Shown in pieces: positions 2,636 through 6,651 of a stretch of DNA of 10,137 nucleotides. Made by a program: the position numbers and the translations under genes. A model generated the notes under the pieces. The model worked only from the letters and a program-made list of their open reading frames with translations. It was not told the DNA's origin and made no database searches. Positions within the stretch are counted from its first letter, which is position 1. Every line of letters starts with the position of its first letter. This stretch comes from a virus. Lineage: Duplodnaviria > Heunggongvirae > Uroviricota > Caudoviricetes. Where the stretch lies: the IMG/VR virus record IMGVR_UViG_2529292716_000008; one strand, given 5' to 3'.

Positions 2636-2662
2636 AGGGGAGCATATGACACATAAAACAAA

Positions 2663-2682
2663 GGCGACCTGGGGCGGTCGCC
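2663..2682. terminator. GC-rich hairpin between convergent transcription units (putative bidirectional terminator)
   Basis: GGCGACC (2663-2669) / GGTCGCC (2676-2682) stem with a 6-nt loop. On the minus strand it is followed by TTTGTTTTAT (good T-tract); on the plus strand by AGTTTGG (weak). Sits just after the alpA stop (2635) and downstream of the minus-strand unit. Confidence 0.45.
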
Positions 2683-2746
2683 AGTTTGGAAACACTAAAC
2701 ATAAGCATGTCAATGATAGCCGCTATCAGGCTGGTGGGCAATGCTA

Positions 2747-2923
2747 TCAGTCTGTTTCAGTGCGTTGCCATAACTGCGAAGCTCTCTCCTTTGATGAGTA
2801 TTCTTTAAGGTACTTCTCAAGGGCAAAAGAACACGGCGCGAATCGTTCTGATTCATGCTCTTTCTTTCTGCGTCGTCTTTTTCGTGCAGGTGATGTTTTT
2901 TTGGTTGATTCTTCGTTGGTCAT
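2747..2923 (-). CDS. Possible small basic protein (58 aa), very tentative
   Basis: Minus-strand ORF translated by hand: MTNEESTKKTSPARKRRRRKKEHESERFAPCSFALEKYLKEYSSKERASQLWQRTETD. It lies between the minus-strand regulator gene and the hairpin terminator. There is no convincing SD, and the region is purine-rich on the minus strand, which produces K/R/E-rich ORFs by chance. Below the 60-aa cutoff of the ORF track. Confidence 0.2.
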   Translation of the reverse strand: MTNEESTKKTSPARKRRRRKKEHESERFAPCSFALEKYLKEYSSKERASQLWQRTETD

Positions 2924-2980
2924 TGTGTGCGCCTGTAAAGCAATGCGCCGGAGTTCCTCACACCACGGCGCTGATAGTGA

Positions 2981-3286
2981 TTATTCTGATTCTTTGGCCT
3001 TGCGGCGCTGGAGTTCTTCGCGTGCAACGGTGATAAGCTGCCCGATTTCCTCCGCTGCCTTGATGCCGATTTGTTCGACATTAGCTAGGGCATCCAGTGA
3101 AGACACAAGGGGATTTTCTCCACTTCCTTCTGCCTGGCGCCTGGCGATCTCACCGCGTACAGCCGTAACTATAAAATTCGCTTTAGTTTCCCCTGGCTGT
3201 AGGGATGCCTCAATGCCACTCACTACTTCATGTGGAAATCTGGCATTCAGTTGCTGTGACTTATTGTTAACAGAACTCCTGGACAT
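2981..3286 (-). CDS. Small DNA-binding regulator, possibly ribbon-helix-helix type (candidate island repressor)
   Basis: 101 aa from the ATG at 3286 (MSRSSVNNKSQQLNARFPHEVVSGIEASLQPGETKANFIVTAVRGEIARRQ...), preceded by a strong SD (GGAGGTG, plus-strand complement at 3293-3299). The N-terminus has a beta-strand / helix / loop / helix pattern compatible with an RHH fold. Divergently oriented from the downstream + operon, with repeated operator-like sites in the shared intergenic region. Fold assignment is inference only. Confidence 0.55.
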   Translation of the reverse strand: MSRSSVNNKSQQLNARFPHEVVSGIEASLQPGETKANFIVTAVRGEIARRQAEGSGENPLVSSLDALANVEQIGIKAAEEIGQLITVAREELQRRKAKESE

Positions 3287-3329
3287 GTTTGCACCTCCCA
3301 TTAATAACGGGATGCAGTGTAATACAAAA

Positions 3330-3384
3330 GTGAATACCAAAAAAGACTTGAAATGGTATTCACCTAAATGTAATGTGAATACCA
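3330..3384. promoter_or_regulatory. Three copies of a 10-bp operator-like site GTGAATACCA (direct, inverted, direct) in a divergent promoter region
   Basis: GTGAATACCA at 3330-3339, its reverse complement TGGTATTCAC at 3354-3363, and GTGAATACCA at 3375-3384. Centre-to-centre spacing is 24 and 21 bp. Located between the minus-strand regulator start (3286) and the first + operon gene (3487). Confidence 0.55.
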
Positions 3385-3421
3385 CAAGTGCTGATACATG
3401 CAATTCAGCAATTGAAACGAC

Positions 3422-3458
3422 GAAGCCCCGCAAGTGTCGTTACCACTCGCAGGGCTTC
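3422..3458 (+). other. Imperfect hairpin in the leader of the + operon
   Basis: GAAGCCC (3422-3428) pairs with GGGCTTC (3452-3458). An inner CGCAAGTG / CACTCGCA near-complement extends the stem. Ends ~30 nt upstream of the ATG at 3487. No T-tract, so not a classic terminator. Confidence 0.3.
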
Positions 3459-3486
3459 TAACCAACAACGTAAACGAGGAGCCGTT

Positions 3487-4003: not shown

Positions 4004-4303
4004 ATGAGAACGTATTTATCTGGCTTGACTGCCAGCGGTTATGCACACCCCAAAATTATCCCCGGCGCTATTTATCTGGATAAGAACGGTAACAGAGTAA
4101 CGGTAAAAGAACTGATGTTTGACCGTGTGTATTTTATTCGTGATGGCTATTCATTTCATAGTTCGCTGAACGTGGAGATCTTTATTAGCAGATTCAGGCG
4201 GGAAATCCCGCTTTCCAGAAATAACCATGTGTCATGTATGGATGTTGATAAAAAACTACAGGAACTGAAAAACATGATTGCCGCGTGGAGAGAGCAGAAA
4301 TGA
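4004..4303 (+). CDS. Hypothetical protein (99 aa)
   Basis: ATG at 4004, 7 nt after the upstream stop. Its stop overlaps the primase start (ATGA at 4300-4303). Weak SD. Protein MRTYLSGLTASGYAHPKIIPGAIYLDKNGNRVTVKELMFDRVYFIRDGYSFHSS... No recognisable motif. Confidence 0.5.
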   Translation: MRTYLSGLTASGYAHPKIIPGAIYLDKNGNRVTVKELMFDRVYFIRDGYSFHSSLNVEIFISRFRREIPLSRNNHVSCMDVDKKLQELKNMIAAWREQK

Positions 4304-6102
4304 AAAAAGCGCCAAATTTAAAACACCAGCCGCGTGACAAAATGACGGAAGTCATCATTTTTGCGGGTAATGATGCGTGGGCACATGCGAAGCAGTGGCA
4401 GGAACAGGACGGGCGACTGGCTGGCGACAGCGTGCCTCCTGTCTGGCTTGGAGAACAACAACTTGCCGAACTGGATAAGCTGCAAATCGTACCGGACGGA
4501 CGCTATCGGGTGCGTCTCTACCAGGCGGGGTTATTGCGTCCGGGGCTTGTTAATACCATCGGGCAGAAACTGGCAGCGGCAGGTGTCAGGGATGCTGATT
4601 ATTACCCTGAAGGAATGCACAGCCAGAAACGGGAGAACTGGCGCGAATATCTGGAACGTGAACGGGCAGAGCAGGCGGAAAAGAAAAAGGTAGTTGAACT
4701 GCCTGTAAAGAAAAAAGAGCGGGTAAAAGACGATAACGCTTCATCACTGGCGCTTAACCAGATGGGAGCAAGTCAACGCGGCGAAGTTCTCCTGGCACAT
4801 TATGGCGGTGAACTGGCGATTCATGCTGACTCTGACACTGTTCACCATTACAACGGCGTTGTATGGGAGCCAGTACAGGATAAAGAATTACAGCGAGCTA
4901 TGGCACAGATTTTCATTGATGCGGAGATCAGCTATTCGCAGAACGCCATTAAATCGGCGGTCGATACCATGAAGTTAAGTTTGCCTGTAATGGGGAATAC
5001 AGCCCGTAACCTGATTGGATTCAGTAACGGGGTATTTGATACCAGAACAGGTAATTTTCGGGAGCATAACAAAAACGACTGGTTGTTAATTGCCAGTGAA
5101 TTACCTTTCAGCCCACCAGCAGAGGGGGAAACGCTGGCAACACATGCGCCGAATTTCTGGAAGTGGTTACGCCGTTCGGTGGCTGAGAATGACCGCAAGG
5201 CGGATCGCGTACTGGCTGTATTATTCATGGTGCTGGCGAACCGGTACGACTGGCAGTTATTCATTGAGGTAACAGGTCCAGGGGGAAGTGGTAAAAGCGT
5301 GATGGCGGAGATTTGCACCATGCTGGCGGGTAAGGCCAACACAGTATCGGCAAGCATGAAGGCGCTGGAAGATGCAAGGGAACGCGCGTTAGTGGTTGGC
5401 TTTTCGCTGATTATCATGCCGGATATGACCCGCTACGCTGGTGATGGGGCAGGGATTAAGGCCATTACAGGCGGTGACAAGGTGGCAATTGACCCGAAAC
5501 ACAAAGCCCCCTACTCAACGCGTATTCCGGCAGTAGTGCTGGCGGTTAACAATAACGCCATGTCATTCAGTGACCGCAGCGGGGGGATCTCACGTCGTCG
5601 GGTGATATTCAATTTTTCGGAAGTTGTACCGGAGAACGAACGCGACCCCATGCTGGCAGAAAAAATAGAAGGAGAGCTGGCGGTTGTGATTCGCCACCTG
5701 CTTACTCGTTTTTCTGACCAGGACGAAGCTAAACGCCTGCTGTATGAGCAGCAGAAATCAGAAGAAGCTCTGGTGATAAAACGCGAGGGCGATTCGCTGG
5801 TGGACTTCTGCGGCTATCTCATGTCGTCGGTAATGTGTGATGGTCTGTTAGTGGGTAATGCCGAAATTATTCCGTTCAGTCCGCGCAGGTATCTTTATCA
5901 CGCCTATCTGGCATATATGAGGGCACACGGATTCGGTAAACCTGTAACACTGACGCGCTTCGGTAAAGATATGCCGGGGGCAATGGCGGAATATGGCAGG
6001 GAGTATATGAAACGGAAAACGAAGCACGGTTTGCGTTCAAATGTGACCCTGACAGAGGATTCAGAAGACTGGATGCCATCATGTGCAATAGGTCACAAAT
6101 GA
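4300..6102 (+). CDS. P4 alpha-like replication protein: primase / SF3 (D5-type) helicase with C-terminal origin-binding region
   Basis: 600 aa from the ATG at 4300, with SD GGAGAGAG at 4287-4294. The track's GTG at 4285 is an alternative start. Walker A GPGGSGKS and a downstream ITGGDKVAIDPKHK motif are typical of the P4-family primase C-terminal / D5 helicase region. Followed immediately by TGTTCACC iterons, the P4 alpha binding sequence. Confidence 0.85.
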   Translation: MKKAPNLKHQPRDKMTEVIIFAGNDAWAHAKQWQEQDGRLAGDSVPPVWLGEQQLAELDKLQIVPDGRYRVRLYQAGLLRPGLVNTIGQKLAAAGVRDADYYPEGMHSQKRENWREYLERERAEQAEKKKVVELPVKKKERVKDDNASSLALNQMGASQRGEVLLAHYGGELAIHADSDTVHHYNGVVWEPVQDKELQRAMAQIFIDAEISYSQNAIKSAVDTMKLSLPVMGNTARNLIGFSNGVFDTRTGNFREHNKNDWLLIASELPFSPPAEGETLATHAPNFWKWLRRSVAENDRKADRVLAVLFMVLANRYDWQLFIEVTGPGGSGKSVMAEICTMLAGKANTVSASMKALEDARERALVVGFSLIIMPDMTRYAGDGAGIKAITGGDKVAIDPKHKAPYSTRIPAVVLAVNNNAMSFSDRSGGISRRRVIFNFSEVVPENERDPMLAEKIEGELAVVIRHLLTRFSDQDEAKRLLYEQQKSEEALVIKREGDSLVDFCGYLMSSVMCDGLLVGNAEIIPFSPRRYLYHAYLAYMRAHGFGKPVTLTRFGKDMPGAMAEYGREYMKRKTKHGLRSNVTLTEDSEDWMPSCAIGHK

Positions 6103-6127
6103 CGATGGAAAAAATTAAACTTATGGA

Positions 6128-6358
6128 ATAACTGTTCACCACTGTTCACCCTGCAATAAATGTCTTTTATATCAGTATATTATAGGGTGAACAGTTATTT
6201 ATGAACTGTTCACCAAACTATTCACTGTTCACCTTTTTGATTCTTTATTGAGCTTTAAGGGTGAACAGTGGTGAACAGTTGGTGAATAGTTTTTGTGAAA
6301 CTGTTAACCCATTAACATCATGAATAAAAAGGGAAAATTGCAAAAGGTGAACAGGTGA
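6128..6358. repeat. Iteron cluster: about nine copies of TGTTCACC / GGTGAACA flanking an AT-rich segment; putative ori (P4 ori/crr-like)
   Basis: Direct TGTTCACC at 6133, 6143, 6207 and 6226. Inverted GGTGAACA at 6186, 6260, 6270 and 6346, plus degenerate GGTGAATA at 6281. AT-rich stretch at 6151-6185. TGTTCACC is the type I iteron of the P4 ori and crr, bound by P4 alpha. Confidence 0.75.
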
Positions 6359-6405
6359 AGGGTTAAAATGCAAAAATTTTATTTTATTGCTGTGAGGTAA
6401 AGCCT

Positions 6406-6651
6406 GTGACAACGAAGCACGCCAAAAAACCACAATCTCACGCCCTTGATTTGACAGAACACTGGCTGAGGGTGGCGATAAAAATCATCGACCGCAACGC
6501 CGGGGAAGGATACGCGAAAGCACATCCCGAACTGATAAGCGCATTCATGACCACGACGGCGGCAAACTTTGCCACGCTGACAGAACGGGAGATTGCCGAA
6601 GCGGAACAGGTGACAACCATCAACGTTAAAACCGGAGAGCAGACAGCATGA
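6406..6651 (+). CDS. Hypothetical protein (81 aa), translationally coupled to ssb
   Basis: GTG start at 6406 preceded by GAGGT (6394-6398). Its stop overlaps the ssb start (ATGA at 6648-6651). Protein MTTKHAKKPQSHALDLTEHWLRVAIKIIDRNAGEGYAKAHPELISAFMTTTAANFATLTEREIAEAEQ... No recognised motif. Confidence 0.5.
   Translation: MTTKHAKKPQSHALDLTEHWLRVAIKIIDRNAGEGYAKAHPELISAFMTTTAANFATLTEREIAEAEQVTTINVKTGEQTA

Follow-up and report, generated by a model that had tools for sequence, protein, structure and literature searches.

The island and its genes

The stretch of DNA analysed here (10,137 bp, hereafter the window) spans an island almost completely. A tyrosine integrase gene (1-1239) stands at its left end, and further on come a DUF4222 gene (4004-4303), the rep gene (4285-6102, + strand) and, directly after rep, the cluster of short repeats that is the main subject of this analysis. 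Past the cluster lie, on the + strand, a gene for an 81-residue protein (6406-6651; phrog_1231) that is labelled "hypothetical protein" in relatives, and an SSB gene (6648-7070; Pfam SSB, E=4e-16) whose product is likely to be an accessory replication factor; these are followed by genes for a ClpP-like protease and capsid (7730-9597). The closest relative in a complete genome, ~92% identical and with the same gene order, lies between cspD/yljB and clpS of E. coli O111:H8. The relative L077 lies between cspD and clpS, and Table S1 of PMC6092414 gives this attachment site for the PICIs EcCIIHE3034 and EcCI18098. No sid, delta, psu or epsilon domains were found among the scanned ORFs; where P4 carries sid, delta and psu, this element has a protease-capsid protein instead. 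Judged by its gene content and by the attachment site of its relative, the element is a Gram-negative PICI and not a P4-like satellite.

The left part of the island is interrupted by a copy of IS1 (1545-2311; Pfam DDE_Tnp_IS1), which sits ~105 bp upstream of the alpA-like gene, in the interval that separates this gene from int. It is flanked by a target duplication of ~10 bp (1535-1544 and 2312-2321), is missing from L077 and may affect induction of the island. At the other end, a 13-nt deletion near 8797 disrupts the gene for the ClpP-like prohead protease/major capsid fusion: L077 has it as a single 629-aa ORF, the window as two ORFs that overlap (7730-8875 and 8839-9597). The split gene is either a frameshifted pseudogene or the product of a sequencing error. 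It may be that this copy of the island is never induced, though its rep and ori look intact. The segment 3012-3642 has no alignment to L077, and the ORF at 2646-3461 (271 aa) has no match in Pfam, NCBIfam or PHROG; this part of the island, which lies between the regulator and the genes for replication, is accessory and variable.

The 401 bases from 6050 to 6450, which run from the last part of rep through the cluster into the following gene, are present in 648 of 5,426 complete E. coli genomes, and the records of these genomes annotate there only the flanking genes, as "DNA primase family protein" and "hypothetical protein". Some E. coli genomes have up to 6 places that match the origin region, so several islands of one Rep/iteron class can share a chromosome.

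The initiator protein

The product of rep has 605 residues (the true start may be the ATG at 4300) and consists of an N-terminal module, a D5_N/SF3 helicase core and a C-terminal origin-binding domain. It matches the Pfam families D5_N, DUF5906 and Pox_D5, and its match to TIGR01613 (primase_Cterm) is below the family cutoff. Residues 150-600 share 50% identity with amino acids 320-771 of P4 alpha, that is, with its helicase core and C-terminal domain, and residues 502-598, encoded at 5788-6078 on the + strand, match PDB 1KA8, the origin-binding domain of P4 alpha (phmmer, E=2.3e-24). This coding region includes a candidate specificity segment, EYMKRKTKHGLRSNVTL, to which we return below; from its position past the last helix-like stretch we infer that it sits on the beta-hairpin "wing" of the domain, for which a single-sequence AlphaFold model gave a pLDDT of 37.

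In P4 alpha, a primase domain of the DnaG type is combined with an SF3 helicase and, at the C-terminus, with a winged-helix domain that binds DNA (PMC2777425). The first 150 residues of Rep do not align to alpha at all: the N-terminal primase domain of P4 (~320 aa) is replaced in Rep by an unrelated module of ~130 aa that belongs to no Pfam or NCBIfam family and falls in a PHROG of unknown function. Neither Pfam nor NCBIfam recognises a primase domain in Rep, and consequently a replicon self-sufficiency like that of P4 cannot be assumed. The first-pass annotation, made from the sequence alone, had spoken of an "alpha-like primase/helicase"; the likeness to alpha holds for residues 150-600, but the primase domain of P4 is absent. 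With the Rep of the PICI EcCICFT073, on the other hand, the window protein shares 65% identity over its N-terminal 150 residues and 48% over the whole length. A copy of Rep that is 100% identical is found in the viral contig L079.

The iteron array

An octamer search of the 10,137-bp window located exact copies of TGTTCACC in both orientations: the + strand carries those at 6133, 6143, 6207 and 6226, the - strand those at 6186, 6260, 6270 and 6346. These eight copies, four per strand, fall inside 221 bp (6133-6353), against an expectation of 0.31 for the whole window (dinucleotide-preserving shuffles of all 10,137 bp; mean 0.31, maximum 3). Copies with one mismatch occur at 6281-6288 (- strand, TATTCACC) and 6302-6309 (+ strand, TGTTAACC). 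Two more positions that hold full sites in relatives are weaker here: 6219-6225, which reads TATTCAC and is short by one base, and 6354-6361, which reads GGTGAAGG. The array thus has ~12 iteron positions in total, weak and degenerate copies included. The extended repeat unit is ACTGTTCACC; adjacent copies are spaced by 10-11 bp, and the range over the sites of the tandem groups is 8-11 bp.

The iterons are arranged in five groups (pair, single, triplet, triplet plus one oppositely oriented site, pair) that are parted by three AT-rich spacers of 26-36 bp. The array begins 31 bp past the rep stop codon (6102) with iterons 1 and 2 (6133-6140 and 6143-6150, + strand), a direct tandem pair of TGTTCACC, spaced by 10 bp; the two sites are invariant among the aligned relatives. 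They are followed by a 35-bp spacer (6151-6185; 23% G+C), matched in length and position by spacers of relatives and of the P4 crr unit, and by the single inverted iteron 3 (6186-6193, - strand). Iterons 4-6 (6207-6233, + strand) consist of two exact copies (6207-6214 and 6226-6233) with the degenerate TATTCAC (6219-6225) between them, at the place where relatives have three full sites at offsets 74, 85 and 93. On the far side of a 26-bp spacer (6234-6259; 23% G+C) comes the inverted triplet of iterons 7-9 (6260-6288, - strand), spaced by 10-11 bp; the sites at 6260 and 6270 are exact and that at 6281 reads TATTCACC. Iteron 10 (6302-6309, + strand) is the one-mismatch copy TGTTAACC; the close relatives L003 and L077 have the exact TGTTCACC in its place. 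The third spacer (6310-6345; 36 bp, 25% G+C) contains the conserved motif TTAAC...ATGAAT, and the array closes with iterons 11 and 12 (6346-6361, - strand), the exact GGTGAACA and then the degenerate GGTGAAGG. Counted from the first site, with arrowheads for orientation, the offsets are 0> 10> 53< 74> 93> 127< 137< 148< 169> 213<.

Much of this had been noticed at the outset. The first-pass annotation had counted four direct and five inverted copies, one of them degenerate, and this count is correct, with one more degenerate direct copy to be added; it had also remarked on a 35-bp AT-rich segment, which is the spacer at 6151-6185, and on the position of the array directly downstream of the alpha-like gene, which the 31-bp gap bears out. 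Its description of the origin as "bipartite", however, was an understatement in view of the five groups and three spacers.

The sole other exact TGTTCACC in the window is a singleton at 4839-4846, within the rep coding region, and is probably there by chance. Isolated singletons are also seen inside rep in relatives (L077, positions 12948 and 13653).

Duplex stability and other signals around the array

According to nearest-neighbour free energies, the least stable 30-mer of the whole window is 6155-6184 (dG of -28.2 kcal/mol versus a window mean of -40.8, sd 3.6). It lies inside the spacer at 6151-6185, which is accordingly our best candidate for a DNA-unwinding element. Between 6100 and 6420 there are no DnaA boxes and no GATC sites, which fits initiation by Rep alone; oriC-type 13-mers were sought and not found, and the IHF-like matches have one mismatch each.

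One motif other than the iterons deserves mention. TTAAC with ATGAAT a few bases later, at 6313-6327 in the window, is kept in all seven of the aligned TGTTCACC-class PICI origins, and P4 ori shares it in part at 9361-9377 (CCCTTTAACTTACTGTAT). It could be a host-factor site or a melting point.

A terminator scan of 5900-6700 found none, including in the interval between rep and the repeats, and therefore the rep-proximal array is probably transcribed; Rep binding at the array could have a secondary regulatory role. The promoter scan of the same interval gave nothing on the + strand and one promoter-like site on the minus strand, no more than in shuffled sequence. The window has no match to any Rfam family, so that an RNA gene was ruled out, and the minus-strand ORF at 6245-6433 (62 aa) is regarded as spurious.

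A layout conserved among relatives

For the comparative analysis the rep genes of 72 loci in species-representative genomes and of 80 viral contigs were collected together with the DNA that follows them, and the window, P4, EcCICFT073 and further loci were added. The pattern of sites in the window recurs exactly in 54 loci. The corresponding offsets are 0, 9, 57, 77, 88, 97, 130, 141, 209 and 218 in EcCICFT073 and 0, 9, 57, 78, 89, 99, 122, 132, 165, 209 and 217 in Symbiopectobacterium; offsets and orientations thus persist across iteron classes though the repeat itself differs. When seven diverged TGTTCACC origins were aligned, 76% of the columns were invariant in the iterons versus 28% elsewhere.

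The layout has an experimental precedent in EcCICFT073, whose rep and downstream region allow a plasmid to be maintained, an ability that is abolished by deletion of either rep or ori (Fillol-Salom et al. 2018, PMC6092414, Fig. 2). Rep-dependent autonomous replication of a rep-ori clone has been shown only for that element (PMC6092414, Fig. 2b). The array of the window has the features of a Gram-negative PICI origin: it lies 3' of rep, it has ~12 sites around spacers of 35, 26 and 36 bp, its Rep is homologous to a validated one whose site layout is nearly superimposable, and its context is that of a PICI, both in its genes (int, DUF4222, rep, SSB and protease-capsid) and in the cspD-clpS location of the relative L077. 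The window array is the EcCICFT073 structure in another specificity class. We also weighed the possibilities of a packaging site and of a mobile repeat element and set them aside, because the array layout is homologous to that of proven origins.

Iteron classes and a co-varying segment of Rep

The 144 loci that have enough sequence downstream of rep were sorted by the dominant repeat of each locus. The class of TGTTCACC contains the window, P4 and relatives in Klebsiella, Raoultella, Kluyvera, Citrobacter and Rahnella, whereas that of TGTCTACC contains EcCICFT073, EcCIIHE3034 and relatives in E. ruysiae, Kluyvera georgiana and Enterobacter. The classes of TGTCCGCC and TGTCCACC are found in Serratia, that of TCTCTACC in Symbiopectobacterium and that of TGTGCACC in Proteus. 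A frame, T-T---CC, is common to all six, and the differences between them are mainly at the three central bases.

The iteron class tracks one short C-terminal segment of Rep throughout the 144 loci. Every one of the GTTCACC loci (86/86, P4 included) has the segment K[RA][KH]T[KN]xG[ILMF][RQ][STY]N, which reads KRKTKHGLRSN in the window and KRHTKQGIQTN in P4. A 5-aa insertion (...CT[KR]GPDKGR..., for example KRAKCTKGPDKGRVITN) is present at this place in 10 of the 12 GTCTACC loci, and the Serratia (GTCCRCC), Proteus (GTGCACC) and Symbiopectobacterium (CTCTACC) loci each have a Rep segment variant of their own. The locus L008 of E. ruysiae is a telling case: its helicase core is 93% identical to that of the window and its binding domain 68%, and its iteron is TGTCTACC. 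Such natural swaps show the binding domain and the array travelling and changing together, as cognate recognition predicts. That the repeats are recognised by the protein encoded just upstream, as first supposed, is therefore supported both by the 1KA8 homology and by the co-variation of repeat and domain across relatives.

All six natural classes can be followed within one origin family, at loci L004, L008, L012, L013, L015-L017, L042 and L053.

Correspondence with P4 ori and crr

In the P4 record (NC_001609) TGTTCACC is annotated as "ori type 1 repeat", and the P4 sequences agree with this; the first-pass annotation was right to identify the octamer with the type I iteron of ori and crr, to which it is identical. 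On the strength of the GenBank annotation, of the name under which 1KA8 is entered and of PMC2777425, we take the type 1 iterons to be bound by alpha. P4 has six type 1 sites in ori (9310-9413), and crr (4291-4590) has ten, spread over its two 120-bp repeats. The alpha stop codon is at 4636, and the region directly downstream of the gene is crr, which comes after a terminator; ori is ~4.7 kb away.

The right half of the window array corresponds to the P4 ori core. Positions 6257-6368 are collinear with the ori core at 9308-9420, with 76 of 115 columns identical (66%) and an alignment score of 29, against -24 +/- 5 for shuffles. The offsets in this half are 0, 10, 21, 42, 86 and 94, and those of the ori core 0, 10, 21, 43, 86 and 96. 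Site by site, the triplet at 6260-6288 is collinear with the triplet at 9310, 9320 and 9331, iteron 10 (6302-6309) corresponds to the site at 9353, iterons 11 and 12 correspond to those at 9396 and 9406, and the 36-bp spacer at 6310-6345 is the counterpart of the 35-bp AT-rich stretch of the ori core. The left half resembles crr. Its first three sites lie at 0, 10 and 53, those of the crr unit on the P4 + strand at 0, 9 and 52, and in both, 35 AT-rich bp separate two direct sites from one inverted site; alignment of the left half to crr in that orientation scores 10-13, and in reverse about -22. A simple inversion that would derive the arrangement of P4 was not adopted, since both halves align to the same P4 strand.

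The type 2 repeats of P4 (CAYTTAAAG), which P4 has beside its origin, have no match in the window, and neither the window nor four complete related islands contain a second iteron cluster, the only other copies being the singletons inside rep. With one cluster per island and no type 2 repeats in the window, the PICI origin looks, from its layout, like the undivided form of what P4 splits into crr and ori. The initial label of a "P4-type" origin fits the type 1 iteron and the origin-binding domain; the separate ori and crr of P4 have no place in it.

A probable vegetative replication origin and its alternatives

What the sequences establish directly is an array of repeats in a conserved layout, a set of homologies, the co-variation of repeat and Rep segment, and a duplex of low stability; on these grounds we think it very probable that 6130-6362 is the vegetative replication origin of the PICI. 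The events that we infer there (Rep binding, melting, helicase loading and priming) might proceed as follows. Once the island had been induced and excised, Rep would bind the ~12 ACTGTTCACC iterons through its C-terminal winged-helix domain; tandem sites 8-11 bp apart would be about one helical turn from each other, and the groups would oppose each other across the three spacers. Assembly of Rep would distort the DNA and open one of these spacers, most likely 6151-6185, and Rep, loaded there as hexamers, would act as the replicative SF3 helicase. The SSB of the island would cover the single strands, and the host DNA polymerase III would perform a theta-type, DnaA-independent replication. Because Rep is without the P4 primase domain, priming would probably be due to the host DnaG, or else to a putative activity of the small N-terminal module of Rep.

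The comparison with P4 also raises the question of whether the cluster might be only a crr-like cis enhancer, with the true start in a separate origin elsewhere in the island. It is, after all, crr that P4 has directly downstream of alpha, with ori 4.7 kb off, and the window sites at 0, 10 and 53 are spaced as in the crr unit. No second cluster is seen, however, either in the window, which covers nearly all of the island, or in the four complete related islands, and the collinearity of 6257-6368 with the P4 ori core (76/115) means that an ori-core half and crr-like sites, hence both P4 elements, are inside one cluster. Moreover, rep and the downstream region of EcCICFT073 are enough for replication (PMC6092414). 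We consider a mere enhancer extremely improbable.

Iterons serve both initiation and control in many plasmid systems, and it could be asked whether the repeats are mainly an operator array, at which Rep or another protein of the island would control the downstream operon (6406 onward), by way of read-through or a promoter, or limit copy number. With no terminator after rep, the array stands between rep and the next genes in a region of unidirectional transcription (PMC6092414), and a weak TTGCAA-N19-TAAAAT, read by eye and missed by the promoter scan, brackets the last iteron pair. Nevertheless, the + strand promoter scan was empty and the sites were no commoner than in shuffles, while the layout is homologous to that of a proven origin and to the P4 ori core; regulation would most likely be an addition to the origin function, not a replacement for it, and a predominantly regulatory array seems to us quite unlikely. 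The signs of decay in this particular island invite yet another reading, in which the array is an intact-looking relic whose origin function has been lost in this genome. The IS1 near the alpA-like regulator and the frameshifting 13-nt deletion in the protease-capsid gene are compatible with such a loss, as is the fact that the sites at 6219-6225, 6302-6309 and 6354-6361 are weaker than in the closest relatives. But decay elsewhere in the island leaves a cis site active, 10 of the 12 positions fit the layout of the 54 loci, and Rep is full length, with a 100% identical copy in L079, all of which makes a relic very unlikely.

Implications for satellite replication

Nothing here overturns current understanding. 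The replication modules of PICIs and of P4-like elements are linked to the level of binding site, domain and site layout, and there is now a suggestion of how the unusual two-part origin of P4 relates to a compact one. For annotation, it places an origin in a gap that is left blank in the records of 648 of the 5,426 E. coli genomes. We found no text on PICIs with the P4 type 1 iteron, although Fig. 2a of PMC6092414, which lists the iteron sequences of several E. coli PICIs, may draw an origin of the TGTTCACC type; likewise we found no text on an array collinear with P4 ori and crr, or on an iteron class that tracks a Rep segment. A search for the octamer itself returned primer lists only.

The short Rep segment and the three central iteron bases are candidate specificity determinants, and such determinants could explain the compatibility or interference of satellites that reside together. 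A bolder and rather doubtful proposal, which we offer tentatively, is that one ancestral array lies behind both the compact and the split origins, that P4 alpha and PICI Rep recognise each other's sites, and that there is an iteron recognition code. As both have TGTTCACC and the segment that tracks its class, P4 alpha and the Rep of this PICI should recognise each other's origins. If this were so, trans-activation, titration or incompatibility could arise between two satellite families in one cell. P4-like satellites and PICIs are reported to co-occur less than expected in E. coli (PMC10085698), and P4-PICI cross-talk, if real, might contribute to this. The six classes, with their common frame T-T---CC and a Rep segment for each, would then amount to a simple recognition code from which orthogonal replicons could be built.

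Comparison with known origins

Origins of the pSC101, R6K and P1 type have arrays of direct repeats for the initiator beside an AT-rich unwinding region, but their initiators are not helicases and rely on DnaA boxes and on DnaB/DnaC loading. The window differs from them in that its initiator is itself an SF3 helicase and in having no DnaA box or GATC. In the SaPIs and other PICIs of Gram-positive bacteria the iterons are other short repeats, and Rep and Pri are separate or belong to other families.

P4 is much nearer. It shares with the window the type 1 repeat TGTTCACC and a homologous helicase core and origin-binding domain (~50%), but P4 has ori and a duplicated crr ~4.7 kb apart, whereas the window has a single cluster of ~230 bp; P4 has a terminator after alpha, whereas none follows rep; and alpha begins with a DnaG-type primase domain of ~320 aa, of which Rep has no equivalent.

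EcCICFT073 is another close counterpart. Its array too is immediately 3' of rep, in an island of the same type and with the same order of genes (int, HTH regulator, Icd-like, DUF4222, rep, ori, small ORF, SSB), and the number of sites, their offsets and orientations and the AT-rich spacers are nearly identical. The differences lie in the iteron (TGTCTACC versus TGTTCACC in the window) and in the Rep binding domains, which are only 34% identical. The window origin is predicted from sequence homology, whereas that of EcCICFT073 has been proven by experiment; a PICI origin made of iterons and AT-rich spacers is one of a known kind, with an experimentally proven sibling.
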